The position numbers and the translations under genes are program-made. The notes under the pieces are model-generated. The model did not search any database and was not told where the DNA came from. It worked only from the letters and a program-made list of their open reading frames with translations. Positions 3,343 to 45,328 of a DNA stretch of 64,000 bases are shown here, in pieces. Origin of the DNA: an uncultured candidatus Brocadiaceae bacterium (GTDB lineage: Bacteria > Planctomycetota > Brocadiia > SM23-32); the NCBI GenBank assembly GCA_964421565.1, contig CAYQXJ010000001.1:192241-256240 (forward strand), in the 5' to 3' direction. Each line of letters begins with the position of its first letter. The first letter of the stretch is position 1.

Positions 3343-5040
3343 TCAGTGGCCGTCGCTCTTCTGCCGCGAGCGGATGTGCTCCACCAGGTCGGGGTCACCT
3401 CCCGCGCTCAGGTAGTAGTCGAGGTCCAGCCGTGAGAGGTCGAGGACCTTCTCCTTGGCGGTTGCCTGGAGGACTTCCTCCTTCTCGGATTGATACTGTG
3501 CTGCCTCTTCCGGCGGCAGGTTGAAGGGGTGCATGTGGAACTGCCAGTTTTGCCCCTTCTTCTGCGGGGGCCAGGGCTCCTTCTCCGGCTCGTCTGAGGG
3601 GACCAGCCGGCCATGCTCCAGGCTCTCGGCATGGCCATAGCGGGCCTCATAGCTGGCCAGCGTAGCCTTCAGATGGTCGTAGGCGGCCCGCTGGTCTGCC
3701 GCCAGTTCGTTGCGGAGCAGGTTGTTCACCTCGGCGGGATCGGCCTCAAGGTCGTACAGTTCCTCCAGGCCGCCGTCGAACAAGTAGTTATACTTGTAAC
3801 GCTCCGTGCGCAGGCTGATCCACCGCCCTCTGCCCTTGCCGTTCTCGCTGTAATGCACACTGCGGTCGCGCGTTCCGCAGCCCTCGGGTATCAGCAGCGA
3901 CTCGCCCGGCAGGTCGTATTCGGCCGGGTATTCAATCCCGCACGCGTCGAGTATCGTCGGCAGCAAGTCCACCTGGTCGGCGTAGTCGGCGCGCGTGGTC
4001 CCCGGGGCTATGCGTTCGGGCCAGCGCATCAGCAGCGGAATGCGCAGGGAGCTGTCGTTCGGCATGCTCTTGGACCAGGCGCCGTTGTCGCCCAGCATCT
4101 CGCCGTGGTCGCTGGTGAAGATGACCAGGGTGTTGTCGAGCTGGCCGATCTCCTCCAGGGCATCCAAGACCTTGGCGATGTTCTTGTCCACGTGGGTGAT
4201 ACTGGCGTAGTAGAGCTCACGGATGCGGCGAACCTTGGCCGGATCGCGGTAGTCGATGCCGAACCGGGAGTGCGCGAGCCTCGGGTTGGCGTCCTCCTCC
4301 TGGGCCGTTGGCTCGGGCAGGTCGGCGCCCTGGTAAAGGTCGGCCAGTTCGTCCGGAGGGGCGAAGGGAGGGTGGGGATCAATCCAGCCTGCCCACAGGA
4401 AGAAGGGGCGGTTGCGGTTCTGCCGTATCACCTCTGCCGCTCGGTCCCCAACCCACGTGGTGCCGTGATGTTGCTCGGGCAGCAGACTGCGTTGCGGCTG
4501 ACGGTAGAGCAGGTTCCGTATGCCATGGATGTTGCGCACGTGGCCGAGGCCGACCGAACGCAGGTACTGTGCGTAGTCGTCATCCGCCGGGTTGCGGAAC
4601 AGCTCCTCCATCAGTTGCATACGGTGGAAACCGTGGTGGGTGCGGGCGGGTCGGAAGTGCATCTTGCCCACGACCTCACAGTGGTAGCCGTTGTCGGCCA
4701 GTATCTTCGGCAGGCGGGGCACAGCGCGCGGTATGACGGCACTGTTGTTCACCCACATGCCGGTGTGGCGGCTGTATAGGCCCGTCAGCAGGTTGTGGCG
4801 CGCCGGCACGCAGACCGGGTTGGTGCTGCAGGCGTGGGTGAAGGCGACGCCTTCCCGGACCAAGCGGTCCAGGTTGGGCGTGATCATGTGGTCGTATCCG
4901 AGTGCCCGGATGGTGTCGTGGCGCTGCTGGTCGGTGAACAGCAGCACAACGTTCGGCTGGCCCTCCGGGCGTTCCTCGCGGAACAGCGGGAAGGTGTAGT
5001 CGCGCACTTCAGGCATGGCGCCCTCCAGAACCCTGGACAA
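3343..5040 (-). CDS. Arylsulfatase-family sulfatase (Cys-type), no signal peptide, ~100-aa C-terminal extension
   Basis: 565 aa, TTG start. LLFTDQQRHD, the C-x-P-x-R site CVPAR followed by HNLLTG, and the C-terminal RTERYKYNYL...ELYDLEADPAEVNNL block. No hydrophobic N-terminal segment. Confidence 0.85.
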   Translation of the reverse strand: MSRVLEGAMPEVRDYTFPLFREERPEGQPNVVLLFTDQQRHDTIRALGYDHMITPNLDRLVREGVAFTHACSTNPVCVPARHNLLTGLYSRHTGMWVNNSAVIPRAVPRLPKILADNGYHCEVVGKMHFRPARTHHGFHRMQLMEELFRNPADDDYAQYLRSVGLGHVRNIHGIRNLLYRQPQRSLLPEQHHGTTWVGDRAAEVIRQNRNRPFFLWAGWIDPHPPFAPPDELADLYQGADLPEPTAQEEDANPRLAHSRFGIDYRDPAKVRRIRELYYASITHVDKNIAKVLDALEEIGQLDNTLVIFTSDHGEMLGDNGAWSKSMPNDSSLRIPLLMRWPERIAPGTTRADYADQVDLLPTILDACGIEYPAEYDLPGESLLIPEGCGTRDRSVHYSENGKGRGRWISLRTERYKYNYLFDGGLEELYDLEADPAEVNNLLRNELAADQRAAYDHLKATLASYEARYGHAESLEHGRLVPSDEPEKEPWPPQKKGQNWQFHMHPFNLPPEEAAQYQSEKEEVLQATAKEKVLDLSRLDLDYYLSAGGDPDLVEHIRSRQKSDGH

Positions 5041-8894: not shown

Positions 8895-10406
8895 TTGCGA
8901 TTGACAGCGGGGGGCGGAGCGGGCAGGATGAGCCGCGTCGAAGGGACGGCGCTCAGGCGCCTGTGCGAATGTAGAGATGCGCAGCGGGCCTGGGCGCATC
9001 GGGCGATTGAGTGCCGCCTGGCCGTGCTGCGTCGCTTTCGGTATGCCGTTGCGCGCCGGGCGCAGGCGCTTGTCGACGCAGTAGGGCAGTCTGACCGGCG
9101 GGCGTGTGGCGAAACCCTGGCCGCCGAGGTTTTGCCCCTGGCTGAGGCCTGCCGCTACCTGGAAAGGCGGGCGCGGGGCGTGCTGGCACCGCGCCGGGAT
9201 CGAGCCCGTTTCGGTCCGCCGCCGATCGGCGGCACTGAGCTGGAAGTGCGACGGGAGCCATGGGGCGTGGTGCTGGTCATCGGCCCGTCCAACTACCCCC
9301 TGCTTCTGCCGGGTGTACAGGCCCTACAGGCGTTGGCGGCAGGCAACGCTGTGCTGCTGAAGCCCGCTCCGGGTGGTCTGCTGGTCGCGGAACTGGTGCG
9401 TGAACTCCTCATCCAGGCCGGCCTGGACGAGGGACTGTTCTGCGTGCTGAGTGAATCGGTCGAGGCCGCGAAGGGGGCCATAGAGGCCGGCGTGGACAAG
9501 GTCGTGCTAACGGGGTCGGTTGCCAGTGGGCGGGCCGTGCTGCGGCAGCTTGCCTTGCACACCACGCCGGCGGTGATGGAACTGTCTGGCTGCGACGCGA
9601 TGTACGTGATGCCCGAGGCCGATCTGGACCTCGTCGCCCGCGCGGCCGCGTTCGGGGTGACGGCAAACGGCGGGGCCACCTGCATAGCTCCGAGGCGAGC
9701 GTTCGTGCCGCGGAACATCAGCCGCGAACTGGAAGAGCGCTTGCGCGACCGACTGCGAGACGCGGGATCGGCGCGCCTGCAGGAGCGCGCCGCCAGACTT
9801 GCCGCGCGCCTGGTGCGCGAGGCGCTTGCGGACGGGGCGCGGATCGTAACGGGCGAGCCGCCGAGTGGGTGCCGCATGAGGCCCTTGCTGCTGGCGGGCG
9901 TGTCGCCCGAGACGAAGCTGGTGCAGCAGGACGTATTTGCGCCGGTGCTCTCGATCTTGCCCGTGCGCGACATGCAGGAGGCTGTGCGCGCGGATGAGCA
10001 ATGTCCTTACGCGCTCGGGGCATCGGTCTTCGGGCCGGAACGGTCGGCGCGTCGTCTGGCCCGAAGTGTGCGGGCCGGGTGCGTCACGGTGAACGACATC
10101 GTGGCCCCCACGGCCGACCCACGCCTGCCGTTCGGTGGTTGGGACGCGAGCGGATACGGCGTGACGCGCGGCAGGGAGGGCTTGCTGGCGATGACGCGTG
10201 TCAAGACCATCGCCGTCGCCCGCGGCCGCCTGAGGCCGCATCTGCGTATGCAGCGCGCCGGCGACGGGCAGGTCATGGAATCGATCATCACCTTACGGCA
10301 CGATGGGCGCTGGCGGGCCAGGGCGCGTGCGCTGCTGGCCCTCTTGCGGGCCGTGCTGCAGGGCTCAGGTGAGACGAGAGCACAGAAGGAGCGAGCCGAT
10401 GGGTAG
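8895..10406 (+). CDS. Aldehyde dehydrogenase family (candidate 4,4'-diapolycopene aldehyde dehydrogenase)
   Basis: 503 aa. ALDH core GPSNYPLLL...KPAPGG...ELSGCDAMYV (catalytic Cys) ...TANGGATCIAPRR. Stop overlaps the start of the next CrtI-family gene (ATGGGTAG). Confidence 0.8.
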   Translation: MRLTAGGGAGRMSRVEGTALRRLCECRDAQRAWAHRAIECRLAVLRRFRYAVARRAQALVDAVGQSDRRACGETLAAEVLPLAEACRYLERRARGVLAPRRDRARFGPPPIGGTELEVRREPWGVVLVIGPSNYPLLLPGVQALQALAAGNAVLLKPAPGGLLVAELVRELLIQAGLDEGLFCVLSESVEAAKGAIEAGVDKVVLTGSVASGRAVLRQLALHTTPAVMELSGCDAMYVMPEADLDLVARAAAFGVTANGGATCIAPRRAFVPRNISRELEERLRDRLRDAGSARLQERAARLAARLVREALADGARIVTGEPPSGCRMRPLLLAGVSPETKLVQQDVFAPVLSILPVRDMQEAVRADEQCPYALGASVFGPERSARRLARSVRAGCVTVNDIVAPTADPRLPFGGWDASGYGVTRGREGLLAMTRVKTIAVARGRLRPHLRMQRAGDGQVMESIITLRHDGRWRARARALLALLRAVLQGSGETRAQKERADG

Positions 10407-28918: not shown

Positions 28919-29590
28919 TCAGCTCCCGGGTTCCATCTCGGGTTTGTGGCGCACGATCTCGCCTTCGACCATGTAAACGACGTCTTCGGCGATGTTGGTA
29001 GCGTGGTCGGCAATGCGCTCGACGTGTCTGCACGCGGACAGCAGGTGGGTCAGCGCCTCCAGCTCGTCCGGATGCTCGCGCATGCCGGCCCGCACTTCCT
29101 CGTACATCTGACGGTTCATTGCATCGACTTCGTCGTCCATCGGGCCGACCTGGCGAGCGAGCTCGGCATCCATGTTCACCAGGGCGTCCAGGGACTGCTT
29201 GACCATCTGCTGGGCCCTGTGAGCCATGGTTTCGAAGTCGAAGACGACTCCGCTGACGCGGTGTCCGGCGAGGAAGACGGCGCGCTCGGCGATGTTGACG
29301 GCCAGGTCACCGATGCGTTCCAGGTCGCTGTTGATCTTGAGCACGGCGACGATGAAGCGCAGGTCGATGGCGACCGGCTGGTGTAGGGCGAGTATTTGCA
29401 GGCACTCCTCCTCGAGTTCCACCTCGGCAATGTCGATCTGTGGATCGCTCTCGATGACCTCGTAGGCGAGCTCCGTGTCTTGTGTTTCCAGCGCGCGCAC
29501 GGACTTATGCACGCTCTCCTCCACCTGTCCGCTCAGGGAGTAGAGATGCTTGCCCAGCTTATCCAGCGCCCTTTGCAAGTGCAGTGACAT
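28919..29590 (-). CDS. phoU: Phosphate transport system regulator PhoU
   Basis: The ORF 28919..29962 has a likely start at MSLHLQRALDKL (29590). Two PhoU repeats (DLERIGDLAVNIAE / VERIADHATNIAED). Confidence 0.85.
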   Translation of the reverse strand: MSLHLQRALDKLGKHLYSLSGQVEESVHKSVRALETQDTELAYEVIESDPQIDIAEVELEEECLQILALHQPVAIDLRFIVAVLKINSDLERIGDLAVNIAERAVFLAGHRVSGVVFDFETMAHRAQQMVKQSLDALVNMDAELARQVGPMDDEVDAMNRQMYEEVRAGMREHPDELEALTHLLSACRHVERIADHATNIAEDVVYMVEGEIVRHKPEMEPGS

Positions 29591-29604
29591 AGGCGTCTTC
29601 CTTA

Positions 29605-30417
29605 TCAGCCGAAGCGGCCGGTGATGTAGTCCTCGGTGCGCTTCTGTTTGGGCTTCGTGAACAGTTGTGGTGTCGGTCCGAACTCGATCAGTTCGCCTTC
29701 GTAGAGGAATGCTGTCAGGTCGGAAACCCGTGCCGCCTGTTGCATGTTGTGGGTAACGATAACGATCGTGTAGTTCTCGCGCAACTCGCCGATCAGGTCT
29801 TCGATGCGGGCGGTGGAGCGGGGGTCGAGCGCGCTGGTCGGCTCGTCCATCAGCAGTATGTCCGGGTCGACGGCGAGGGCCCGCGCGATGCAGAGCCGCT
29901 GCTGCTGGCCTCCGGAGAGCCCCAGCGCGTTCTGGTGAAGACGGTCTTTCACCTCCTCCCATAGGGCGGCCTGCCGCAGGCTGTGTTCTACGACCTCATT
30001 CAGCTCGGAGCGGCTGCACCGACCGTGGATGCGCGGTCCGTAGGCGATGTTGTCGTAGACGGACTTGGGGAAAGGGTTTGGCTTCTGAAAGACCATGCCT
30101 ATTCGTCGCCTCAAGGCGACCACGTCGACGCGGGGCCCGTAGATGTTCTCCCCTTCAAAGATCAGCTCACCGGTGGCGAAGCAGCCGGGGATCAGGTCGT
30201 TCATTCGATTTATTGCCCGCAGGAAGGTGCTCTTGCCGCACCCGCTGGGCCCGATGATGGCGGTCACCTGGCCCACGGGAACGCCCATGGTCACCTGCCT
30301 GACCGCCTCGTTGTCACGGTAGAAGACGGAGAAGTTCTCCGCCCGCACATGGTAGGAGCCGTTGTCGACCGACATCTGGCTGTCGTTGACGACATCCTGG
30401 AAGGAGAGCTTGATCAT
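29605..30417 (-). CDS. pstB: Phosphate ABC transporter ATP-binding protein PstB
   Basis: 270 aa. Walker [10 protein letters not shown], signature LSGGQQQRL, and the PstB-typical N-terminus. Confidence 0.9.
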
Positions 30418-33001: not shown

Positions 33002-33865
33002 TCAGTAGTCCGTGACGGGAACGAAGCCGATGCTCTCTACGATCGCCTGCCCGTCGCGCGTCAGGTGCAGCGTGATGAACGCGTGCAGGTGCGAGCCGAG
33101 CTTCGGATATCCGTCGGTGAACATGTAAAGGGGCCGGGCAATGGCGTACTTGCCCGTGGCGACGGTGCGCGCAGTTGGTTCCACGCCATTGATGGTGAGC
33201 GCCTTGACGGTGCGGTCCACAAAGCCCAGACCGACGTAGCCGATGGCGGCCGGTGTGCTCTGCACACGGGCGCGTATGGCGCCGTTGCTGCCGACGTACT
33301 CGGCGGCGTCGTCGATGCGCTCCTTGTTCATCACGAGGCCCTCGAACGTTTCGTAGGTGCCGCTGTTGGTGTCGCGGCTGATCATGATAATCCGGCGGTC
33401 AGGGCCGCCGACCTGGTTCCAGTTCGAGATCTGACCCTTGTAGATGCGGCGGACCTGCTCGACGCTGAGTTCCTTGACCGGGTTGCTGGGGTGCACGATC
33501 ATCGCGATGCCGTCCATCGCGACCACGTGGGCCACCGGCTGCCTGCCGGCCTCTACAGCGGCGGAGAACTCGCCTTCCTTCATGAATCGCGACATGGCGC
33601 CTACGTCGCAGGTGCCGTTGATCAGGCTCTTGGCGCCGTTGCCGCTGCCGGATTCGCTGACGGTGATGTTGACCTGCGGGTTCTTGGACATGTAGTACTC
33701 GGCGAACGCCTTGGCGATGGGGCCGACGGTAGTCGAGCCGTCCACCACGATGGCGTTCGGGCTGCGCTGCTGGGCGTTGGCATCGAGGGACGCCACGCTC
33801 AGAACGGTCGCGCAGGCGAGCACGGCTGCGATCAGGATAGTCTCCAACGTGCGTACCATGGTCAC
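33002..33865 (-). CDS. pstS: Phosphate-binding protein PstS (signal peptide)
   Basis: 287 aa, GTG start. GSTTVGP...SGSGNG phosphate-binding blocks. Confidence 0.9.
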   Translation of the reverse strand: MTMVRTLETILIAAVLACATVLSVASLDANAQQRSPNAIVVDGSTTVGPIAKAFAEYYMSKNPQVNITVSESGSGNGAKSLINGTCDVGAMSRFMKEGEFSAAVEAGRQPVAHVVAMDGIAMIVHPSNPVKELSVEQVRRIYKGQISNWNQVGGPDRRIIMISRDTNSGTYETFEGLVMNKERIDDAAEYVGSNGAIRARVQSTPAAIGYVGLGFVDRTVKALTINGVEPTARTVATGKYAIARPLYMFTDGYPKLGSHLHAFITLHLTRDGQAIVESIGFVPVTDY

Positions 33866-33907
33866 TCCTCCGTGTTGGCGGTTATCCCGCCTGAAAGATA
33901 GGCTGAT

Positions 33908-33925
33908 TGTGTTAGAAGTGTGTTA
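33908..33925. promoter_or_regulatory. Pho-box-like direct repeat (7-bp TGTGTTA, 4-bp spacer, 7-bp TGTGTTA) upstream of pstS
   Basis: TGTGTTAgaagTGTGTTA lies 43-60 nt upstream of the pstS start codon. PhoB boxes have 7+4+7 (11-bp periodicity) architecture. Confidence 0.35.
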
Positions 33926-33975
33926 GGAGCAGGAGAGCGCCCGGTGAGGAGCGCCCTCCCGCGCCCCCGGGGCGT

Positions 33976-35385
33976 TTAGAAGTCCACCTGCAGACGCATC
34001 ATGAAGGTGTCTGCGTCGGCGTCGTCGATCAAGTCCTCTTCGTACATCCTGTCTTCGAGCGACGAGTTGACGTAGTTCCACATGATGCGCATGTTCGGGT
34101 TGAGGTACCAGTTCAGGCCCAGCGTGACGTTGCTCAGCTCGCCGGCATACATGATGTCGCCGTCGTTCAGGTCAACGTTGGAGTAGCGGGCCGCGACTTC
34201 CCAGGCGCCCAGTCCGCCCTTGCCGTCGAAGTTGTTCTTCGGCTTGACGCGGTCAAACTTGCCGCCGGAAGTCTTGTAAGGACGGTGTTCGCCTGTCAGG
34301 AAGTAGCTGGCGAACACGTAGAAGCCGTCGAACTGCGGGTCATCCATGGATTCGGAGTCCACGTTCGCCGTGATGTACTCACCCTGCAGGCTGAAGGGGC
34401 CGTGCACCCAGGCCGCTTCAAGGCCGCAGAGGACAACGTCATCGGCCATGAACTTGTCCGTGTTGACCCAGCGCTCGGAGGCGAGGTGCACCTCCGGACG
34501 GGCGCGGTAGCGCACCATCTCGGGGCTGTTGCGATAGCTGCCGGCAGCGCCCAGATGCACCAGGCGGGCGCCGTCGTCCTCGTAATAGGGCAGGTAGGTC
34601 AGGCGGCCGGTCGCATTCCAGCCCTCCTGATAGGTCGCCTCGTCGTCGTCGCTGTTGTGCTCTACGAACGTGCCGACCGCCCACGTGCCGCGCTTCTCGT
34701 TGAAGGTGTTAGCCACCTGGACACCGATGTTCCGGCTCGGCGAGAATGCCGCAACCGGAAGTGCACGCTCCATGAAGGTGATGTACTTGCTGCTGGTCAG
34801 TTCTTCAAGGCTGAACGGTTCCTTGAAGTTACCGGCCTTCACGGTGCCGATCGGCAGCAGGTTCGCGAACTCCAGGTAGGCGTCCTTGAAGTCCGCATCG
34901 CCACCGGCGAAGTCTATCTGCAGTTTGTAGCCGGTGTTCTCGTAGATACTGCCTTGCATGTAGAAGCGCGCCCGGCGGAACTCGGCGTCGCCCTCCAACT
35001 CGCCCAGAGTCGCCTCGATCTCGTCGTCCGCACTCATGCTCGCTACGTCGACCATGATGCGTCCGCCGACCTTCAGGCTGAAGGCGCCGTCCAGGCTCTT
35101 GAAGCGCAGACCCTTGCTCCAGTATGCCTTCAGGGTCTCTGGGCCGTAGAGCTGTTCCATCTCCTCGCGGACAATCTGCGAGACCTGCTCTCTGTCGACC
35201 CCCTGCCGGGCGGGGGGCAGACCCCGCTCGCGGGAATACTCTTCCAGCCGCTTCTCGAGTTCGTCAACACGCCGACGCAGGACATCCACTTCGGAATACC
35301 CCGCCGACGCTACGCCACCAACCAGCAGGGAGAGCCCCACTGCCAGCAGCACCGCTCTGCTTGCCATTCTACACATGCTATGCAT
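33976..35385 (-). CDS. Phosphate-selective porin O/P (OprP-like) outer-membrane beta-barrel
   Basis: 469 aa. Signal peptide, N-terminal coiled segment, then an aromatic-rich beta-strand pattern ending in a terminal Phe (..MRLQVDF). Confidence 0.75.
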   Translation of the reverse strand: MHSMCRMASRAVLLAVGLSLLVGGVASAGYSEVDVLRRRVDELEKRLEEYSRERGLPPARQGVDREQVSQIVREEMEQLYGPETLKAYWSKGLRFKSLDGAFSLKVGGRIMVDVASMSADDEIEATLGELEGDAEFRRARFYMQGSIYENTGYKLQIDFAGGDADFKDAYLEFANLLPIGTVKAGNFKEPFSLEELTSSKYITFMERALPVAAFSPSRNIGVQVANTFNEKRGTWAVGTFVEHNSDDDEATYQEGWNATGRLTYLPYYEDDGARLVHLGAAGSYRNSPEMVRYRARPEVHLASERWVNTDKFMADDVVLCGLEAAWVHGPFSLQGEYITANVDSESMDDPQFDGFYVFASYFLTGEHRPYKTSGGKFDRVKPKNNFDGKGGLGAWEVAARYSNVDLNDGDIMYAGELSNVTLGLNWYLNPNMRIMWNYVNSSLEDRMYEEDLIDDADADTFMMRLQVDF

Positions 35386-35808
35386 CCTCTAAGAGTTGAA
35401 CGGACGGACAGTTGCAGAAACAAACCGCAGTGATTAGGGGGGAAGACTGCCTGCATCTGCGCGCACGCCGTCGGTGACGGCGCGCGCGGCGTCACACTCC
35501 ATCCTCCGGACCTCGCATGTCTGCCACGCTCTGCCGCTCAGGCGTGCACGCGCCACCGGCGGCCCCCACGGACCGATACGCGACCGATGGCACGCTGCTG
35601 CTTTTGCGCTTGTGCACACGGGTAGAGCGGGGACAGTAGCCGAGGCGCTGCCTCGTTGCGTTGTGTCCACGGGCGCACGCCGCCTCGCAAAACGCGCACT
35701 CGGGGTGCTCAAGCCATCTGCCTTGAGCAGCACAGGATAGGGCCGGGCTATGAGGGAGGTGTTAGCGCTCGTTGAGAAACGCGATGACGTGCGCCGGGCG
35801 GCGCGACG

Positions 35809-37590: not shown

Positions 37591-38277
37591 TCACTCCTTG
37601 AAGCGATAGCCCACGCCGCGTACGGTCTCGATCAGGTCGCCGAAGCTCCCCAGTTTCTTGCGCAGCGTGGCGATGTGGAAATCGACCGACCGGTCGGTCA
37701 CGGGATAGTCCGAGCCCCGCACTGCGTCGATGATCTGGTAACGGGTGAACACCCAGCCCGGGCGCCGGGCCAGGAAGTGGAGTATCTGGAACTCGGTGTG
37801 CGTCAGGTCGATGCGCTCCTCGCCGGCGCGCACCTCGTGCCGGCCGGGATGGATCAGCAGGTCATGCGCCTCGATCGGCTCGTCTTCGGCCACCGGCTCC
37901 CGCCTTTTGCGGCGCAACACCGCGCGCACGCGGGCCATCAGCACGCGCGGGCTGAACGGCTTGGTCACGTAGTCGTCCGCCCCGAGCTCGAGCCCGGCCA
38001 CGATGTCCGCTTCCTCGCCCTTCGCCGTGAGCATGACGATGGGTATGTGCGCGCTCTCCTGGTCTGCCTTCAACCTGCGGCAGACTTCCAGCCCGTCGAT
38101 GCCGGGCAGCAACAGGTCCAGCACGATCAAGTCCGGCCTCTGTGCGCGAGTCTTCTTGAGCGCTTCCTCGCCCGTGCCCACGCACGTTACCTCGTAGCCT
38201 TCCCGCTCGACGTGATGGCCGACCAGTTCCCGGATGTCCTCTTCGTCGTCGACGACCAGTATGTGTTCCTTCGGCAT
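37591..38277 (-). CDS. phoB: Phosphate regulon response regulator PhoB (OmpR family)
   Basis: Start MPKEHILVVDDE. Receiver plus winged-helix (GYRF) output domain. Confidence 0.85.
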   Translation of the reverse strand: MPKEHILVVDDEEDIRELVGHHVEREGYEVTCVGTGEEALKKTRAQRPDLIVLDLLLPGIDGLEVCRRLKADQESAHIPIVMLTAKGEEADIVAGLELGADDYVTKPFSPRVLMARVRAVLRRKRREPVAEDEPIEAHDLLIHPGRHEVRAGEERIDLTHTEFQILHFLARRPGWVFTRYQIIDAVRGSDYPVTDRSVDFHIATLRKKLGSFGDLIETVRGVGYRFKE

Positions 38278-38451
38278 TGGCGCCCCCTGATCCGTGTTAG
38301 GTTCGGGTACACCCATCTGTATTATAGTCTACTATGTTAGCGCGCGGTGAGCGCTTCTCGATGCCCGCGTGAGCCGATCCGCCCCCCAGGCCTGGGCGAC
38401 ATCTGTCCATGATGTGTTCTCGCCGTCCGAGAGGGCGCGGCGCACGTTCGA

Positions 38452-39774
38452 CTACCGGATCTCCGCCGCCGGGGTTGGCGAGCGCGGGGACTGCTTGCGG
38501 CGCAGGGTCGGACCATCTTCGACCAGGGGGTCGGGCCAACCGTAACGTTCGTGCATGCGCAGCAGCCATTTCTCGAGCCGGCGTTCGAGCTCGCACGCTA
38601 CGTCGCGTTCCACGTTGATCAGGTTGGTCTGCTCGTCTGGGTCTTTGGCCAGGTTGTATAGTTCGCGCACGGCGGTTCCGTGCCAGTTATGCAGGGGTGT
38701 GTCCGAGGCTGCCCGGATGAGCTTCCAGTCCCTGGTGCGCACGCCGCGCTTCACCTGCCAGGTGCCTTCGGCGAGGAACAGGTTCTCGTAGCCGGCTTCG
38801 CCCTGTGCCACGGCCAGCAAGTCCTTGCCGCACATGTCGGCCGGAGCGTCCGCGCCCGCCAGTCTCAGCAGCGTAGGGGGCAGGTCGAGCATCTGCACCA
38901 TCGGCTCCACCCGCGCCCCGGCGTGCTCTGCGCCGGGCAGCTTCACGATGAGCGGCACGTGGATGTTGTCGTCGTAGAGGCCGTGATGGTCGAAGTAGCC
39001 CTCGTGGCGGTCGAGCACTTCGCCGTGGTCGGAGAAGGCGACGATCAGCGATTCGTCGTAGAGGTCGCGGGCCTTCAGCTCCTCCAGGAATGCGCCCAAA
39101 TGCTCGCTGTTGTATGCGATCTCTGCATCGTACTGAGCGCAGACGTAGCCGGCGTCGGTTATGTCCTCGTCGATCCACCCCCAGCCGACGAATGGGCCGG
39201 CGCGGACCTCGAGCATGGAGGTCTTTGACGGATCTCGCGGATCGCCTTCGTAGAACATGCCGCTGTAGGGTTCGGGCGGCCAGTAGGGTGTGTGAGGGTC
39301 CCAGTAGTGGACGAACTGGAAGAAAGGCCGTCCGCCGGGCAGGTCGTCGAGCATCTGGACGGCGGCGGCGCTGATCAGCTCCGCGTTGCGTTTCACCCGC
39401 GCCTCCTTGTCGGACCCCATACCGGGCCAACGGCGTTCGGCGAACCCATCGCCGAAGAGCTCGGCGTGCCCGTGCAGGTTGTCCACGGCGCAGGTGTGAT
39501 AACCCGCGTCGGTGAGCAGCGCTGGCAGCCAGGGCGCTTCTTCCGGAATCCGCCGCGGCGGTATGACGCCCGCTATCCGATGCCCGTAATCCGCAAGTCC
39601 GGTGAAAAGCGACGCGAAGGACGGATCGGTCGGGATCGCCGGCGCGAAGAAGTTCTCGAACACGATGCCGTCTTCGGCCAGGGCGTCCAGGGCGGGGCTG
39701 GTCTGGCGCCCGTAGCCGTAGCAGCCGAGGTGATCGGCGCGCAGGGTATCGATGGCGATCAGGATGATGTTCAT
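38452..39774 (-). CDS. Sulfatase-family (alkaline phosphatase superfamily) hydrolase with a Thr in the nucleophile position (T-D-P-S-F instead of C-x-P-x-R); no signal peptide
   Basis: The ORF 38452..39861 has a probable start at MNIILIAIDTLRADHLGCYGY (39774). Sulfatase-fold blocks throughout. The motif position reads AIPTDPSFASLFTG. Confidence 0.7.
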   Translation of the reverse strand: MNIILIAIDTLRADHLGCYGYGRQTSPALDALAEDGIVFENFFAPAIPTDPSFASLFTGLADYGHRIAGVIPPRRIPEEAPWLPALLTDAGYHTCAVDNLHGHAELFGDGFAERRWPGMGSDKEARVKRNAELISAAAVQMLDDLPGGRPFFQFVHYWDPHTPYWPPEPYSGMFYEGDPRDPSKTSMLEVRAGPFVGWGWIDEDITDAGYVCAQYDAEIAYNSEHLGAFLEELKARDLYDESLIVAFSDHGEVLDRHEGYFDHHGLYDDNIHVPLIVKLPGAEHAGARVEPMVQMLDLPPTLLRLAGADAPADMCGKDLLAVAQGEAGYENLFLAEGTWQVKRGVRTRDWKLIRAASDTPLHNWHGTAVRELYNLAKDPDEQTNLINVERDVACELERRLEKWLLRMHERYGWPDPLVEDGPTLRRKQSPRSPTPAAEIR

Positions 39775-39951
39775 GGGCCGCTCCGAGCTGAGGCAACCGG
39801 GTACGCGCAGGCAGCTTGCTAAGGCGGCACGAATCCTACGCGGGCGGCCCGCGTGTGTCAAGGCTGGGCAGTGGCCGCGAGCTTGACGGTTTCTGCGGGC
39901 GCTGTTATCGTTCAGCGCGAACGAAAACTTATGCTCGGGAGACCCTCACAG

Positions 39952-40998
39952 ATGAGCTATGACCTGGTGACCTTCGGCGAGGCTATGGTGCGGCTGACCT
40001 CGCCGCACCATCAACGGTTGGAGCAGTCGCGCGTGCTGGAGATGTCCGTCGGCGGCGCAGAGTGGAACGTCGCTGTCAACGTCTCGCGGCTCGGCCTGCG
40101 CACGGCGTGGGTCTCGAGCCTGGTGGACACGTGGTCCGGCCGCTTCATCGCTCAGCAGGCGCGCACGCACGGCGTGGACGTAAGCAACGTGGTGTGGCTC
40201 GACTTCGACGGTGTTGGCCGCACCCGCAACGGCTTCTATCACCTGGAGGTGGGTGTCGGCCCTCGCGCCAGCGCCGTAACCTATGATCGCGGCCACAGCG
40301 CCGTCAGCAAGCTGGGGCCGGGCACGGTGGACTGGCATGCCGTGCTGGACGGGGCCAGGTGGCTGCACAGCAGCGGCATCACTCCGGCGCTCTCCACTAC
40401 ACTGCGGGAGACGACGATCGAGATGTTCCGCGCCGCCAACGAACTCGGCGTGCGCACCAGCTACGACCTGAACTTCCGCGGCAAGCTGTGGACGGCGCAG
40501 GAAGCGCGAGAGACGAACGCGCAGGTAGTCCCCCACGTCGAGGTGCTCATCGGCAACGAGGAGGACTTCGAGAAGTGCCTCGGCATCAAGGCGGCGGGCA
40601 CCACCCAGCAGTACTCACGGCTCGACCCGGAGAGCTACAAGGACGTGGTGCGCGAGGCCGTTGAGCGCTTCCCCAATGTCAGGATGGTCGGCACCACGCT
40701 GCGCAACGCCAAGACCGGCCTGCTCAATGACTGGCGCACGTTGCTCTTCGACGGCGAAGATTTCCACCTGAGCCATGTCTACGAGGATCTGGAACTCGTC
40801 GACCGGGTGGGCGGCGGCGATAGCTTCAGCTCGGCGGTCATCTACGGATCGCTCAGTGGCTGGGAGCCCGAGCAAACATGTCAGTTCGCCGCGGCATACA
40901 GTGCGCTGGCGCACACGTTCCCGGGCGATCTGAACTGGGCGACAGAGGCCGAGGCGCGCAAGATCATGGGCGGCGGCAGTGCCCGAATCTCTCGGTGA
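39952..40998 (+). CDS. kdgK: PfkB-family sugar kinase (2-dehydro-3-deoxygluconokinase/KDGal kinase-like)
   Basis: Start MSYDLVTFGEAMVRL. C-terminal DRVGGGDSFSSA anion-hole/GG motif. Confidence 0.75.
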   Translation: MSYDLVTFGEAMVRLTSPHHQRLEQSRVLEMSVGGAEWNVAVNVSRLGLRTAWVSSLVDTWSGRFIAQQARTHGVDVSNVVWLDFDGVGRTRNGFYHLEVGVGPRASAVTYDRGHSAVSKLGPGTVDWHAVLDGARWLHSSGITPALSTTLRETTIEMFRAANELGVRTSYDLNFRGKLWTAQEARETNAQVVPHVEVLIGNEEDFEKCLGIKAAGTTQQYSRLDPESYKDVVREAVERFPNVRMVGTTLRNAKTGLLNDWRTLLFDGEDFHLSHVYEDLELVDRVGGGDSFSSAVIYGSLSGWEPEQTCQFAAAYSALAHTFPGDLNWATEAEARKIMGGGSARISR

Positions 40999-41014
40999 CT
41001 GGGGGGGGTAAGGC

Positions 41015-41659
41015 GTGACCATGTGCGAGACACTCAGCGCGATCCTCGACAGCGGTGTGGTGGCCATCATTCGGGCCGACCGCTCGGAGGGGCTGGTCGA
41101 AGCGGGCAGGGCACTTGCCCGCGGCGGTGTGCGGTGTGTCGAGGTCACAATGACTACCCCCGGCGCGCTGGACGCCATCGCCGGCCTGTGCGAGGCGAGC
41201 GGGGGGGCCTTCATTGTGGGGGCGGGCAGCGTTCTCGACGCGGAGACCGCCCGCGCATGCATCCTGGCCGGGGCCGAATTCCTGGTGATGCCCACCACCG
41301 ACCGTGGCGCGATCCGAATGGCGAAGCGCTACGGCAAGGTCGTCTGCCCGGGCGCGCTCTCGCCGACCGAGGTGCTCTCGGCGTGGCAGGCCGGCGCCGA
41401 CATCGTGAAGGTCTTTCCCGCATCGCTCGGCGGTCCGGCCTACCTTAAGGCGCTGAAGGGGCCGCTGCCGCAGGTGCGCCTGATGCCAGTCGGGGGGGTG
41501 AGTGCGGACAACGCGGCCGACTTCATCCGCGCGGGAGCCTGCGCGGTGGCCCTCGGAAGCGCCCTGGTCAACGACCGGCGCATCGAGACGGCGGATTGGG
41601 ACGCGATAACGCAGGCAGCACGCCAGGTCGTGGAGGCGGTTGGAGAGGCCAGGTCATGA
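41015..41659 (+). CDS. eda: KDPG/KHG aldolase (Eda family)
   Basis: 214 aa. AIIRADRSEG...VRCVEVTMTTPGAL...GAGSVLD...VFPAS..GGPAYLKALKGPLPQVRLMPVGGV typical of Eda. Confidence 0.85.
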   Translation: MTMCETLSAILDSGVVAIIRADRSEGLVEAGRALARGGVRCVEVTMTTPGALDAIAGLCEASGGAFIVGAGSVLDAETARACILAGAEFLVMPTTDRGAIRMAKRYGKVVCPGALSPTEVLSAWQAGADIVKVFPASLGGPAYLKALKGPLPQVRLMPVGGVSADNAADFIRAGACAVALGSALVNDRRIETADWDAITQAARQVVEAVGEARS

Positions 41660-43285
41660 GCTGGCGATCGGGCAGAAGGGATCGCACTCGGTGAACGGGT
41701 CGAGCCCGAGCCCGCTGGTGACGGCCATGCAGCCGGCGCAGACGGCGTGCAGCGCGCAGTTGCCACAGGTCGCCGTCCCGCGGCGGTAGCGATCGGCCGC
41801 CTCTGAGTCGTAGATCTCCGCCAGGGCGTTCTGGCCGACGTTGCCGATTGCCGAAGGGAACTTGCGGCACGCGTGCACCTCGCCGTCCGGCAGCAGGGCC
41901 AGGAAGTTGAACGCCGCCCCGCACCCGTAGCCCGTGCACCCCCCGAAGATGCCTTCCCCCCGAGCATCGCGCACCGGATTCAGCAGATTGTCCTTCAACG
42001 TCAGCATCGCATTCTCGCGCGCAGCGTCGAGGTAGTCCTCCATGAAGGCCGAATAACGCTCAGGGGAGGGCAGAAGCAGGTGCGCACCTTCGCCTACCGG
42101 CGAGAGGCGGTTGAAGGTGAAGCTGTCCGTCTTGCCGCGCAGCTCCTCGGCGAGTGGCAACACCTGGTCAATGTTGGCGTCGGTAAGGGTGAGCATCACG
42201 GCGGAGCGCACCCCGGCGGCCCTCAGCACGTCCAGGAACTCCAACGTGCGGCGAAAGTGCCCCTCGCCCCGTATGCTGTCATTGTGCTCGGCGAGCCCTT
42301 CCAGGCTCACCTGGTAGTAGCGGGGGCGCTGTACTTCTACGATGCGCTCGACATCTTCCTCCGAAGCAGGATTGCCGAGTATGGAGGTGTTGAACCCACG
42401 ATCGGCTGCAGCGCGATAGAGGTCCAGGAACGCTGGATGCAGCAGGGGATTGCCGCCGGTCAGGCAGACGTGGCCGCGCACGTAGCGGTCCCAGCAGAAG
42501 CTGCGCATCTCATCCAGCACCCGCAGCCCCTGTTCGAGCGTCAGGGGTGAACGCTGGCTGCGATCGTAACAGTGCTTGCAGTGCAGATCGCAGCGGTTGG
42601 TGATGTGCCACTGAAGCGTGAAGTTTTCGGCCCTCAAGAACCGCTCCGGTGTGTCGGCCCTGTTGCGGTCGGCTGCACGCCACAGGCGAGGCGGCGGAGC
42701 CAGCAACAGCCCCTTCTCGATGGCGCGCCAAACCAGCCGGTCCACGGTGCCGACCGGCACTCTCCCCTCGTGCGCAGCCTCCTGCGCAGAGATGCCTTCT
42801 GCGTAGAGCTTCACCACGAGCAGATCGCCGTCCTCAGCTTTCTCGGTGCGCAGTTCATCCTTCTGCGGGTTGCGCCACACGGCAATCCACTCGCGCTCCT
42901 TGCGCAGGGGCCCCTCCGCAGAGCCCTTTGAGAATGCATCGCTGAGGGACCAGCGGACGTCGAGCACGTGGAGACTGGGGTTCAGAATGATCGACTCTGT
43001 CGTGCTCGGCAGCTCACAGCTTGCGACCTCGCAACGCGCGCGCGCCAGCCTCGCCACGTCCGTTACCAGCTCTGGCGACCTGGTCTGTTTCAGTGTTCGG
43101 TGAACGGCCCGTAGCAACTGCGGCGGGTGCTCGGCGGACGCCGCGCCTGTGCCGTTGCGAGCCCGTAAACCGCTTGACGCCTGGACCCCCTGATGGTTAG
43201 CCATCCTTAGAAAACGCCCCCTGGCGTGGCAGGGCCGCCCCCAACGGCGGCCCCCACGCCGCTTTAAGTCATCGTTCGGGACCAT
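41654..43285 (-). CDS. Radical SAM/SPASM-domain enzyme with a ~215-aa N-terminal extension containing a sigma-70 region-4-like / RRE-like winged helix
   Basis: 543 aa. The CxxxCxxC motif (HITNRCDLHCKHCYD) is at aa 232-239. The C-terminal Cys-rich SPASM-like region is GGCTGYGCG...CRKF...TCGNCALHAVCAGC...ECDPFC. The N-terminal segment LLVVKLYAEGISAQEAAHEGRVPVGTVDRLVWRAIEKGLL resembles ECF sigma region 4. Confidence 0.75.
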   Translation of the reverse strand: MVPNDDLKRRGGRRWGRPCHARGRFLRMANHQGVQASSGLRARNGTGAASAEHPPQLLRAVHRTLKQTRSPELVTDVARLARARCEVASCELPSTTESIILNPSLHVLDVRWSLSDAFSKGSAEGPLRKEREWIAVWRNPQKDELRTEKAEDGDLLVVKLYAEGISAQEAAHEGRVPVGTVDRLVWRAIEKGLLLAPPPRLWRAADRNRADTPERFLRAENFTLQWHITNRCDLHCKHCYDRSQRSPLTLEQGLRVLDEMRSFCWDRYVRGHVCLTGGNPLLHPAFLDLYRAAADRGFNTSILGNPASEEDVERIVEVQRPRYYQVSLEGLAEHNDSIRGEGHFRRTLEFLDVLRAAGVRSAVMLTLTDANIDQVLPLAEELRGKTDSFTFNRLSPVGEGAHLLLPSPERYSAFMEDYLDAARENAMLTLKDNLLNPVRDARGEGIFGGCTGYGCGAAFNFLALLPDGEVHACRKFPSAIGNVGQNALAEIYDSEAADRYRRGTATCGNCALHAVCAGCMAVTSGLGLDPFTECDPFCPIASS

Positions 43286-43311
43286 GGCTGGTGCCGCGGC
43301 CCCTGGTTTCG

Positions 43312-43542
43312 TCAGCTACAAGAGCCCTGGCCACACGAAGACGCGTCGGTCTTCTCACCCGAGCACGAGCCGTTGCCGCACGAGCCAGCGCCACATGAGG
43401 CTTTCTCCGTCTTGGTGCCGTCATCGTCACGGGCGGCTCCGCGGTGCGTGGATGAACATCCTGTCGCCGCCAGCGTTGCGCCGGCCAGCAGCCCGGCTAC
43501 GCTCAACGTTGCCAGCGCTCGTCCCAGCTTACCCTTATCCAA
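43312..43542 (-). CDS. Small Cys/Gly/Ser-rich lipoprotein-like peptide (candidate radical SAM substrate)
   Basis: 76 aa. TTG start with an AGGAGG Shine-Dalgarno 7 nt upstream. Signal/lipobox LSVAGLLAGATLAATGC. Core ...KASCGAGSCGNGSCSGEKTDASSCGQGSCS with repeated SCGxGSC. Stop lies 27 nt upstream of the rSAM gene on the same strand. Confidence 0.55.
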   Translation of the reverse strand: MDKGKLGRALATLSVAGLLAGATLAATGCSSTHRGAARDDDGTKTEKASCGAGSCGNGSCSGEKTDASSCGQGSCS

Positions 43543-43819
43543 TGAAGCCCCTCCTGTCGCGAGAGTGAAGAAACCACCGGGGGCACCTCGCCCTCCGGTC
43601 CCGTCTAACTATGTCACTGTGTGATACCTATTGTTCAGGTGAAAAGCGCCCCACATCGGCTTCTGCCCGGGGGGGCCGCACTTGATCAGGAGTTCAGACG
43701 CCACTGTACCAGGGCCGCAGCAGAACGGCTATAGGGCTCTTCCCCACCTGGGCGCTCGTTCTGCACCACAAGGCACGCAGAGACGCTGCCCATCTGCCGC
43801 TTTCGCCCTGGCTCCGGGG

Positions 43820-43841
43820 CCCGTGCTGTCGGGCGCACGGG
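43820..43841 (-). terminator. GC-rich hairpin (7-bp stem CCCGTGC/GCACGGG, 8-nt loop) 9 nt downstream of the Tat-sulfatase stop
   Basis: Inverted repeat read directly, with no U-tract, as is common in high-GC genomes. It separates the sulfatase from the peptide/rSAM unit, which has its own AT-rich upstream region. Confidence 0.3.
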
Positions 43842-43849
43842 CAGGGTGC

Positions 43850-45328
43850 TCAGTTCTTCCAGACGTCGGGGTCGTCGGTCTCGTGGCGCAACTGGCGCAT
43901 GCGCAACTGCAGTTGCGTGATCAGTTCCTCGTGGCCTTCCACAGCGGCCAGGTTGTGCAGCTCGTCCGGGTCTTCGCTCAGGTCGTAGAGTTCATGAGCC
44001 TGGGGCGAGCGGCTGTACCAGTGGATGTATTTGTGGCGCTCGGTGCGGATGCCACGGAAGGGGGGGATGTTGCCCAGTTCGGGGAACTCGTAGTACTCAT
44101 ACAGCCAGTCCTCTCGCCATGGCGTCGGTTCGCCCCGCAGCAACGGCAGAAAGCTGCGCCCCTGCATGTGGTCGGGCACCGGCGCGCCGGCAATCTCCAG
44201 CAGCGTGGGGGCGATGTCGATGTTGAGCACCATGGGATGGAGGACCGTGCCGGCGGGTATGCCAGCCGGCCATCGCAGCACGAACGGCACGCGTATAGAG
44301 GGTTCGTACATCAGGCGCTTGTCACCGAGGCCGAACTCGCCCATGAAACGGCCGTTGTCGGAGGTGTGGATGACCACGGTGTCCCGCGCCAGGCCCTGCT
44401 GCTGGAGTGCTTCGAGAACCTGGCCGACACTATCGTCGACGGCCGCCAGTAACTGGTATATCCTGCGCTGTCGCTCGGCCCACGCGGCGATCCTTGCGGG
44501 GTCTGTTCCCTTTGCTGCGCGGCTGCGCACCCACTCGGGCCGGTCGGACATGTCGGCGCCCCAGCTCTGCGGTGGGTCGAACTCGTGGTCCTCATACATG
44601 TGGGCGAACCGCTCCGGCGGCTCCAACGGCACGTGCGGCGCTTTGTACCAGACGAAAAGGATGAAGGGCTTGCTGTGCGGACGCCGTATGAACTGGAGCG
44701 CATGTTCCGTCAGTATGTCCGTAAGATGGCCCTCGTAAACGCGGTCCTCGTACGGTCCCTGGGGCGAGTCGGCCTCGGCGATTTGCGGGTTGTGGTACCA
44801 GCTATGGCCCTTGAAGCCGAAGTAGTAATCGAAGCCTCGGTCGCGCAGGTAGGGCTTGAAATGCGACTTGCCGATGAACGCCGTCTCGTAGCCGTGCCTT
44901 TGCATGATTTCCGGGAAGGTGACGAACTCCCTGGAGAGGGCTACCTCCTCGAGACGGGGCGTCACGCGGTTCGCGCAGATCAGGTGCGAGTGGCTGTATA
45001 GCCCGGTCATGATGGAGGCGCGGGAAGGCGCACACAGGGAGTTGGTGACGAATGCATTGCTCAGCAGGGCGCCTTCGTCTGCGATGCGGTCGATGTTTGG
45101 CGAGTGCACCCAGGGGTTCCCGTAGGCGCCGATGGCCGAGGCGGGGTGGTCATCCGGCATGAACATGACGATGTTGGGCCGGCCCATGCTATTTCCTGGC
45201 GGCATGTGTTCGGTCCCTTCTCTCTTCGTGGTCTGCAAACAGCCGGTGGATGAGGCGAGCAGCCCGGCGGCCGCGGTTGTCGCCGCCCCCTTCAGAAGGT
45301 TGCGCCTGTCGATGCGTATACTCTCCAC
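43850..45328 (-). CDS. Arylsulfatase-family sulfatase (Cys-type) with Tat signal peptide
   Basis: 492 aa. RRNLLKGAATTAAAGLLASS twin-arginine signal. FGly motif CAPSRASIMTG. C-terminal IRTERHKYIHW...ELYDLSEDPDELHNLA. Confidence 0.9.
   Translation of the reverse strand: MESIRIDRRNLLKGAATTAAAGLLASSTGCLQTTKREGTEHMPPGNSMGRPNIVMFMPDDHPASAIGAYGNPWVHSPNIDRIADEGALLSNAFVTNSLCAPSRASIMTGLYSHSHLICANRVTPRLEEVALSREFVTFPEIMQRHGYETAFIGKSHFKPYLRDRGFDYYFGFKGHSWYHNPQIAEADSPQGPYEDRVYEGHLTDILTEHALQFIRRPHSKPFILFVWYKAPHVPLEPPERFAHMYEDHEFDPPQSWGADMSDRPEWVRSRAAKGTDPARIAAWAERQRRIYQLLAAVDDSVGQVLEALQQQGLARDTVVIHTSDNGRFMGEFGLGDKRLMYEPSIRVPFVLRWPAGIPAGTVLHPMVLNIDIAPTLLEIAGAPVPDHMQGRSFLPLLRGEPTPWREDWLYEYYEFPELGNIPPFRGIRTERHKYIHWYSRSPQAHELYDLSEDPDELHNLAAVEGHEELITQLQLRMRQLRHETDDPDVWKN

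Follow-up and report, generated by a model that had tools for sequence, protein, structure and literature searches.

A sulfatase-fold protein with threonine at the nucleophile position, encoded beside the phosphate genes of a candidatus Brocadiaceae bacterium

What does a protein with the fold of a sulfatase do when a threonine stands where the formylglycine precursor should be, and does its place beside phosphate-sensing genes help to answer that question? The case considered here is a 440-residue protein encoded in a stretch of 64,000 nucleotides (the whole of which is hereafter called the window) from an uncultured candidatus Brocadiaceae bacterium (GenBank assembly GCA_964421565.1, contig CAYQXJ010000001.1, positions 192,241 to 256,240 of the forward strand). 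Its gene lies directly upstream of phoBR, as the initial annotation had stated. From this position, and from the Thr, that annotation concluded that the protein is a phosphate-starvation phosphoesterase evolved within the sulfatase fold, and not a sulfatase. The chemical half of the conclusion finds support at the level of the predicted catalytic residues, while the phosphate-starvation half is not supported. To judge from its residues, the protein is most likely a phosphoryl-transfer enzyme with a Thr nucleophile. In our best explanation, to which we give somewhat better than even credence, it would be a soluble cytoplasmic metalloenzyme of the alkaline-phosphatase superfamily, built on the scaffold of the S1 sulfatases, which dispenses with formylglycine, attacks a phosphate ester through T49, and is not under Pho control. 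The gene, its predicted active-site segments (matched where possible to those of MCR-1, a phosphoethanolamine transferase) and the two canonical sulfatase genes of the window are as follows:

38452..39774, minus strand: coding sequence of the 440-residue Thr-type sulfatase-fold protein, from the list of open reading frames (ATG at 39774, stop codon at 38452-38454)
39733..39750, minus strand: D9-T-L-R-A-D14; D9 is a predicted metal ligand, equivalent to MCR-1 Glu246 and to the first Asp of sulfatases (D9 invariant; hhalign)
39730-39732, minus strand: H15, which completes the TxRADH motif shared with MCR-1 (hhalign)
39616..39630, minus strand: T49-D-P-S-F53, equivalent of C/S-x-P-x-R; T49 is the predicted nucleophile and F53 replaces Arg (translation, alignments, column counts)
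39292..39309, minus strand: H156-Y-W-D-P-H161; H161 corresponds to the conserved active-site His of sulfatases and to MCR-1 His395 (translation, 120/120 homologues, hhalign, MAFFT)
38983..39030, minus strand: D249-H250-G-E252...D262-H263-H264 (translation, alignments, column counts)
39833..39861, minus strand: sigma-70-like promoter match upstream of the gene, TTGACA-17 nucleotides-TAGGAT (consensus scan, 10/12 matches; a pattern match only)
3343-5040, minus strand: canonical sulfatase, motif CVPARHNLLTG
43850-45328, minus strand: canonical sulfatase, motif CAPSRASIMTG

Threonine on a sulfatase scaffold

The active-site segment of the protein reads T49-D-P-S-F53-A-S-L-F-T-G, and four independent alignments agree on its register. 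MAFFT alignment with both canonical sulfatases of the window, which exist just as the initial annotation had described them, pairs T49 with their Cys and F53 with their Arg. Searches with phmmer against the PDB sulfatases 7oz8, 7p24, 4uph and 5g2v again match T49 to the nucleophile and F53 to the Arg. A 66-sequence family profile compared with all PDB sequences gives the same register (S-T-P-A-R in 7oz8, S-G-P-S-R in 5g2v), and hhalign pairs T49 with T285, the phospho-acceptor of MCR-1. The two substitutions first noticed in the sequence are thus confirmed: Thr replaces the formylglycine-precursor Cys/Ser, Phe replaces the Arg needed for recognition by FGE/anSME, and every alignment made to check the nucleophile position puts Thr there, with no other Cys or Ser taking its place. 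In an AlphaFold model built from the family alignment (pLDDT 93.9, pTM 0.93), helix 49-58, reached from strand 37-43 by a short loop, begins with T49. The nucleophile of the alkaline-phosphatase superfamily sits at such a place, at the start of a helix after a strand.

The residue numbers depend on the start codon. Translation from ATG 39774, which is preceded by a GGAG that may be read as a ribosome-binding site, gives the N-terminus MNIILIAIDTLRADH, and an identical protein (P0001) is present on other contigs with the same gene call. A 469-residue open reading frame (ORF) from TTG 39861, whose 29 extra residues were considered as a possible leader, is rejected because this TTG is the start of the TTGACA hexamer within the promoter-like site, and because the extension is neither conserved nor hydrophobic among homologues. 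The numbering T78-F82 first given to the motif belongs to that longer frame; the coordinates given were right (codons 39616-39630 do read TDPSF), and the residues are T49-F53 in the 440-residue protein. Some 100 of the 120 closest homologues start no more than one or two residues from MN(V/I)..., and the longer N-termini of the others are unrelated to each other. In the model, the protein opens directly with beta-strand 1 of the catalytic domain (residues 2-8). It has no signal peptide, as had been stated, nor a hydrophobic N-terminus, and none of the homologues has a leader either; it is predicted to be soluble and cytoplasmic.

The fold is that of a sulfatase, also as proposed at the outset. 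Pfam finds the Sulfatase domain (PF00884, 1.1e-47) and SGSH_C (1.6e-20), and each of the 50 matches listed in a Foldseek search of the PDB is either a phosphonate monoester hydrolase or an S1 sulfatase (E 2e-28 to 4e-23, query-normalised TM-scores 0.64-0.76, 19-24% identity over the alignments). Because all of the listed matches belong to these groups, the scaffold is assigned to the sulfatases and not to LtaS, EptA or NPP. The family profile leads to the same relatives, with E values down to 1.2e-54. No PDB entry comes closer than about 24-30% identity by phmmer, family profile or Foldseek, and no curated family covers the protein: the best match in NCBIfam is to a generic model for arylsulfatases, with 150 bits where the cut-off is 481.

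Set beside the S1 sulfatases and phosphonate monoester hydrolases (BT1918, 7oz8; BuS1_11, 7lha; the Agrobacterium radiobacter and R. leguminosarum phosphonate monoester hydrolases, 4uph and 2vqr), the protein shares the fold of two subdomains, Sulfatase and SGSH_C, the metal-ligand positions D9, D249 and H250, and the active-site His H161. Its identity to a sulfatase of the window reaches 30%. It departs from them in lacking a signal peptide and in four residues: Thr for Cys/Ser, Phe for Arg, Asn for the Lys of G-K-x-H, and His for the second Lys. The S1 signature C/S-x-P/A-x-R-x4-T/S-G, with its oxidisable Cys/Ser, is therefore absent. Position by position, the sulfatases of the window and the 440-residue protein compare as follows:

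First metal-ligand Asp: D-D or D-Q in the window sulfatases; D9-T10 in the 440-residue protein
Nucleophile: Cys; T49
Arg of C-x-P-x-R: Arg; F53
Lys of G-K-x-H: Lys; N99
Active-site His (P-H-x-P): His; H161, retained
Metal ligands of S-D-N/H-G: Asp-Asn or Asp-His; D249-H250, retained
Lys of D/S-K: Lys; H263

When the protein is aligned with the window and PDB sulfatases, the columns of Lys113, His115 and Lys375 of AtsA from P. aeruginosa hold N99, a variable residue and H263, respectively. The equivalent of AtsA His211 is kept as H161, and the metal ligands Asp13, Asp317 and Asn/His318 have their equivalents in D9, D249 and H250, with T10 in place of Asp14. All residues specific to formylglycine chemistry or sulfate binding have been lost, and the metal site is intact. 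The case against a sulfatase is stronger than first described, since both sulfate-binding Lys and the Lys-x-His motif are gone as well.

These substitutions run through the whole family. A sequence search scored 8000 candidates and retained 4375 proteins at E <= 1e-10, while an exhaustive search of 50%-identity representatives returned 14742 at E <= 1e-30, true sulfatases included; for the column counts, all retrieved proteins were aligned to the family hidden Markov model. In the 120 closest cluster representatives, which come from many phyla and show 40-72% overall identity, T49 is present in 120/120, and so is each of D9, P51, H161, D249, H250, E252, D262 and H263. Position 53 holds F, Y, H, W or L and never Arg; position 99 is N, S or T in 118, F once and E once, and never Lys. 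More widely, 165 of the 191 matched domains among the 50%-identity representatives align at the nucleophile column, with Thr in 160, Ser in 2, Cys in 2 and Ala in 1. With counts of 120/120 and 160/165, T49 is not a chance substitution or a sequencing error, and the invariance of nine positions argues for an active enzyme. The hundreds of sequences examined come from at least ten phyla and some archaea, and the clade probably has thousands of members. The two Cys-bearing representatives, P0156 and P0249 (CVPSS and CVPSR), fall within the Thr clade and retain its DTxRxDH, HYWDPHTPY and DHGE motifs together with the His found in place of the sulfatase Lys. Such proteins may be reversions or transitional forms. 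Seven other proteins of 813-1549 residues (P0123, P0135, P0160, P0172, P0174, P0177 and P0196) carry two Thr-type sulfatase-like domains (T-[LV]-P-[ST]-[HFT]), so the wider Thr-type group also occurs in tandem-domain architectures.

Thr-bearing PF00884 proteins are already known as a class (LtaS, EptA/MCR, OpgB). About half of the PF00884 seed carries Thr, the example given being the TxNxE (LtaS-like) group, which is other than the clade described here (PMC5066984). Thr cannot yield formylglycine, and evidence is required before any such protein is termed a sulfatase (SulfAtlas, PMC5066984). What sets the present clade apart, on the sequences compared, would be the combination of a soluble, cytoplasmic S1 scaffold with its C-terminal subdomain, the motif T-x-P-x-[FYH]....TG, and a His for the second Lys. 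No characterised member, solved structure or curated family was found for it in NCBIfam, the PDB or the literature, and a literature search on Thr-type S1-like sulfatases and sulfatase-like Pho enzymes returned nothing specific to the clade.

Other known systems are further away. The phosphonate monoester hydrolase/PehA model NF045661 scores 106 bits against a cut-off of 900, and here too the nucleophile of the protein is Thr and not Cys. NPP (PF01663) gives a weak Pfam match of 29.2 bits over residues 4-69 only, in which no stretch passes alone, and the fold neighbours of the protein are sulfatases and not NPPs. The NPP motif, which we take to be T-F-P-N-H-Y-S-I-V-T-G, likewise has a Thr nucleophile followed by x-P and ends in TG. 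The Mn-dependent arylsulfatase of Enterococcus faecium (NF052527; 9koq) is a soluble enzyme of the arylsulfatase/phosphonate monoester hydrolase type with Asp/His metal ligands, promiscuous on phosphate, phosphonate and sulfate esters (PMC12421950). Membership of that family is rejected, as the known enzyme uses Cys61/formylglycine in a C/S-x-P/A-x-R motif (PMC12421950) and the protein scores 70.6 bits against a cut-off of 850.

Likeness to MCR-1 and the proposed chemistry

In MCR-1, Glu246, Thr285, Asp465 and His466 bind the first zinc (Zn1) and Thr285 becomes phosphorylated. The ligands of a second zinc, or of the phosphoryl group, are His395 and His478, the latter being oriented by Glu468 (PMC5216409). 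The reference used for comparison is a 306-residue fragment that is 100% identical to annotated mcr-1. Against it, hhalign aligns the N-terminal 55 residues of the family profile with a probability of 86.5% (E 4.6e-6, 34% identity), pairing D9 with E246 within the shared TxRADH motif and T49 with T285. The C-terminal half is aligned with a probability of 73% (E 3e-5); here H156 pairs with H390, H161 with H395, D249 with D465, H250 with H466, E252 with E468 and H263-H264 with H478, and S-D-H-G-E is identical in the two. D249 and H250 would accordingly be metal ligands, and H263, which replaces the sulfate-binding Lys, would be the counterpart of His478. All seven catalytic residues of MCR-1/EptA are therefore paired in the 440-residue protein, with Asp for Glu246, and this residue-for-residue match indicates that it carries a Thr-type constellation for phosphoryl transfer on a sulfatase scaffold. 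As an aside on the reference gene, a resistance-gene predictor splits mcr-1 into two pieces in the E. coli plasmids NZ_AP027486.1 (L094) and NZ_MW191863.1 (L095), and the copy in L094 is frameshifted on translation.

MCR-1 and EptA consist of a multi-helix membrane domain and a periplasmic domain, whereas the 440-residue protein has no membrane domain and is predicted to be cytoplasmic. It also carries the C-terminal subdomain of sulfatases, and the motif after its Thr, x-P-x-[FYH]....TG, is as in sulfatases. Its scores against the NCBIfam models of phosphoethanolamine transferases fall far short of membership (NF028537, 24.4 bits against 500; NF007160, EptA, 20.9 against 561).

By analogy, a mechanism can be proposed. 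A divalent metal held by D9, T49, D249 and H250 would activate the T49 hydroxyl, which would then attack a phosphate ester, the likeliest being a phosphodiester or another mono-anionic phosphoryl substrate. We infer this preference over a monoester or a sulfate from the loss of three cationic residues. The product of the attack would be a phospho-threonine or phosphoalkyl-threonine intermediate. Meanwhile H161 and H263, the latter oriented by E252, could bind the phosphoryl oxygens or a second metal and aid the departure of the leaving group, before water or an acceptor hydroxyl resolves the intermediate.

Phosphate starvation and rival explanations

The gene opens a minus-strand series that runs Thr-type gene, phoB, phoR, phosphate-selective porin, pstS, pstC, pstA, pstB and phoU. 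Its relevant features are:

37591..38316, minus strand: phoB response regulator gene, likely start ATG 38277 (NCBIfam PhoB TIGR02154, 4.6e-76, 255 bits against a cut-off of 296); the gene call in locus L001 is of 228 residues
35809..37587, minus strand: phoR-type sensor histidine kinase (Pfam/NCBIfam-type family matches)
33976-35385, minus strand: phosphate-selective porin gene
33002-33865, minus strand: pstS
38321..38351, minus strand: phoB's own promoter, a Pho-box-like repeat pair CTCACCgcgcgCTAACAtagta (38330-38351) followed by TATAAT (38321-38326); also upstream of phoB in L092 and L007
35744..35776, minus strand: Pho-box-like repeats, 3 units, upstream of the porin gene
33905..33948, minus strand: Pho-box-like repeats, 4 units including a perfect CTAACAC-N4-CTAACAC, upstream of pstS

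PhoB sites consist of seven-base direct repeats spaced by 11 bp, which take the place of the -35 element. From the window, a candidate Pho box can be derived for the lineage, with 2-4 direct repeats of CT[A/C]AC[A/C] at an 11-bp spacing. The degenerate form CTMACM-N5-CTMACM, with at most one mismatch, matches six times in the 64 kb against 2.3 expected, and 6/6 matches lie before pstS, the porin gene or phoB. The pair before phoB ends 3 nucleotides ahead of a perfect TATAAT, and this promoter lies downstream of the Thr-type gene. Similar sites stand before phoB, the porin gene and pstS in L092 (4138-4159, 6690-6711 and 8370-8402), and before phoB and the porin gene in L007 (9359-9391 and 11928-11949), a locus that ends before pstS. 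Upstream of the Thr-type gene in the window, and of its orthologues in L092 and L007, the degenerate motif has no match. A position weight matrix built from 21 units scores at best 2.4 over 39775-39960, against 17.7-27.6 for the best site of each pho promoter; these scores are partly circular for the training sites, and the orthologous loci serve as an independent check. The gene's own promoter match has a consensus -35 hexamer, unlike the Pho-box architecture.

Nor is the gene order general. Among orthologues of 67-72% identity, the gene adjoins pho genes in 4/10 contexts. In P0003 and P0010 the order is Thr-type gene, a translationally coupled 338-residue ORF, a TrkA_C protein and phoB-phoR-porin, and P0002 appears to be arranged alike, although its contig ends. 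The coupled ORF (337-338 residues; L092 2088-3104 and L007 7323-8336, for P0003 and P0010) overlaps the stop codon of the Thr-type gene and has no Pfam match; by eye we take it to resemble URO-D-like proteins. In tblastn searches, neither it nor the TrkA_C gene has a counterpart in the window. No pho genes are found near P0004 (L010), P0005, P0006, P0007 or on either contig of P0008. In 80 family loci, which come from many phyla, homologues of phoB, phoR and the porin gene are absent within 7 kb except for generic two-component matches, and the 25 most frequent same-strand neighbour families listed include no phosphate-related Pfam family. Membership of the Pho regulon is therefore not supported by the motif search, the weight matrix, the orthologous loci or the 80 family loci, and the position beside phoBR looks like a lineage-specific gene order, not evidence of Pho control. 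A pattern scan finds no intrinsic terminator between the gene and phoB (fold z-score -1.22, not significant), so read-through into phoBR could occur; this would make phoBR depend on the promoter of the Thr-type gene, and not the reverse.

An enzyme of the Pho regulon, induced by phosphate starvation and freeing phosphate from imported organic esters in the cytoplasm as UgpQ does, is nonetheless the alternative that the locus itself brings to mind. The same-strand position directly upstream of phoB-phoR-porin-pstSCAB-phoU fits it, as do the similar neighbourhoods of P0003, P0010 and probably P0002 with two extra genes between, a stretch before phoB in which no terminator was found, and a Thr-type active site suited to phosphoester chemistry. 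We consider it unlikely, given that the Pho-box-like site is missing upstream of the gene yet stands before phoB, the porin gene and pstS across three genomes, that a -35 hexamer occupies the place a Pho box would take in PhoB-dependent promoters, and that six orthologue contexts have no pho genes nearby and 0/80 family loci have phoB, phoR or porin genes within 7 kb. Should the enzyme instead pass a phosphoryl group by way of phospho-Thr49 to another hydroxyl, it would be a cytoplasmic phosphomutase or phosphotransferase, as are phosphopentomutase and cofactor-independent phosphoglycerate mutase. The known cytoplasmic Ser/Thr enzymes of the superfamily are mostly mutases, with a Thr nucleophile and Asp/His metal ligands in the present protein to match; sugar-metabolism genes are frequent neighbours, and the closest mechanistic match, MCR-1, is a transferase. 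But the mutases of the superfamily have a separate substrate-binding cap domain, which this protein lacks, its C-terminal subdomain being of the sulfatase type, and no mutase family of Pfam or NCBIfam matches it. This possibility, a variant of our preferred explanation, strikes us as distinctly unlikely.

A genuine sulfatase that does without formylglycine, acting on sulfated sugars imported into the cytoplasm, would account for several other observations. The closest relatives in sequence and structure are all S1 sulfatases, a canonical sulfatase and anSME lie 2-4 kb away next to kdgK-eda, the gene for P0005 is followed 69 bp on by another PF00884 sulfatase-family gene, and the clade has its rare Cys-bearing members P0156 and P0249. 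We hold this to be improbable, as all the sulfate-binding cations, the Arg and both Lys, are replaced throughout the clade, and to our knowledge no native sulfatase of the alkaline-phosphatase superfamily uses a Ser/Thr alkoxide. A conventional formylglycine sulfatase is likewise unlikely on the residues at hand, with Thr family-wide and not convertible to formylglycine (PMC5066984), the Arg and both Lys replaced, and the active-site residues mapping onto the catalytic set of MCR-1. The destruction of the canonical signature might also be that of a relic, a catalytically dead sulfatase or a binding protein, but with nine active-site positions strictly conserved in 120 homologues of such diversity, and a fold predicted with high confidence (pLDDT 93.9), this can hardly be the case.

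The preferred explanation, a Thr-nucleophile enzyme acting on phosphate esters outside Pho control, has points against it too. Four of the ten orthologue contexts do keep the gene beside the pho cluster, co-transcription with phoBR could take place, and E. coli UgpQ is a precedent for a cytoplasmic, Pho-regulated phosphodiesterase; the Pho box, moreover, is a motif derived here, and PhoB binding to it is a prediction only. The preference for diesters comes solely from the loss of cationic residues. The chemistry in general, whether the ester is a phosphate, phosphonate or sulfate and the enzyme a hydrolase, transferase or mutase, is read from residue identities only. Overall similarity to the phosphoethanolamine transferases is weak (the hhalign probabilities of 73% and 86%), and the closest relatives overall are true sulfatases. 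Finally, Gfo/Idh/MocA genes, the commonest neighbours of the family, are very abundant in these phyla, and the association with carbohydrate genes is weak because such neighbour families abound in these genomes.

Two irregularities of the pho cluster itself deserve mention. Some 360 nucleotides (35386-35743) separate the Pho-box-like promoter after phoR from the start of the porin gene; with no Rfam match, they could be a long leader, the result of a mis-called porin start, or a small unannotated feature. The longest ORFs of pstB (29605-30417) and phoU (28919-29962) overlap by about 360 nucleotides (29605-29962), and phoU probably starts further downstream, since its Pfam PhoU match begins at residue 142 of a 347-residue ORF.

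The wider clade and its neighbourhood

The capacity of marine, sponge-associated and soil bacteria to degrade sulfated polysaccharides is commonly inferred from how many sulfatase genes they have. Members of the clade are routinely annotated as "sulfatase" or "arylsulfatase A" and yet lack every sulfatase-specific catalytic residue, so these counts may be inflated. A soluble enzyme with an S1 scaffold and the catalytic residues of phosphoethanolamine transferases is also a natural test case for how changes of nucleophile and charge switch specificity in the alkaline-phosphatase superfamily. The main value of the analysis lies in flagging a large misannotated family that makes a useful system for enzyme evolution; the lesson of the locus is a negative one, that adjacency to phoBR should not be taken as Pho control. 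In a more far-reaching reading, which we find doubtful, the clade would be a widespread formylglycine-independent branch of the sulfatase fold, made up of soluble cytoplasmic enzymes. With a Thr alkoxide and a His/Asp/Glu set like that of phosphoethanolamine transferases, these would act on imported molecules of carbohydrate origin, cleaving or transferring groups attached through phosphodiesters, and they would form an evolutionary bridge from membrane-bound Thr-type phosphotransferases to the formylglycine sulfatases. If so, P0156 and P0249, which bear Cys and keep the histidines, would be transitional forms, and a sizeable share of the "sulfatases" in Poribacteria, Chloroflexota, Armatimonadota and Planctomycetota-like genomes would not be sulfatases.

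On its other side, the Thr-type gene is divergent from kdgK-eda, and so stands at the border between the phoBR-porin-pstSCAB-phoU cluster and a second cluster (39853-45328 and beyond). The latter comprises kdgK (PfkB), eda (KDPG aldolase-like), anSME (radical-SAM/SPASM), the canonical Cys-type sulfatase and, as seen in L001, an MR_MLE-family enzyme, and looks like a catabolic cluster for uronates and sulfated glycans. Unlike the Thr-type protein, the sulfatase there (43850-45328) carries extra N-terminal sequence, to which the Pfam model TAT_signal gives a weak match of 20.4 bits (cut-off 22.7). Elsewhere in the window, ARAGORN calls an 88-nucleotide tRNA-Ala(GGC) at 9148-9235 on the plus strand, inside a long ORF (8895-10406); an Rfam search of the whole window has no matches, and the call is probably a false positive because Rfam gives no tRNA there at the gathering threshold.

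Around the orthologues, the neighbours are mostly of carbohydrate metabolism and transport. Upstream lie ABC-type transporter genes, a solute-binding protein and permeases for P0010 and permeases for P0002. P0007 lies near GH130, GH38 and GH2, and P0005 near GH5, PIG-L and another PF00884 sulfatase-family gene, while a GlcNAc-2-epimerase-like gene is found near P0008. In the 80 family loci, the commonest operonic neighbours are Gfo/Idh/MocA oxidoreductases (15/130 neighbour ORFs), in Actinomycetota, Chloroflexota, Armatimonadota and unclassified metagenome-assembled genomes. No operon partner is universal across these loci; the others are lineage-specific, namely PhyH (11), a PEP_hydrolase-like TIM barrel (7, Poribacteria), an aminotransferase (6), an M16 peptidase (5) and NUDIX (4). 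Taken together, the neighbours suggest that the substrate may be a carbohydrate-derived ester imported into the cytoplasm, rather than one used for phosphate scavenging. In seven loci from Poribacteria and unclassified metagenome-assembled genomes (L049, L053, L059, L062, L064, L081 and L089), a conserved triad runs from a PhyH-family dioxygenase through the Thr-type homologue to the PEP_hydrolase-like TIM barrel (PF09370), a composition that may point to a metabolism of phosphonates or phosphoesters there.

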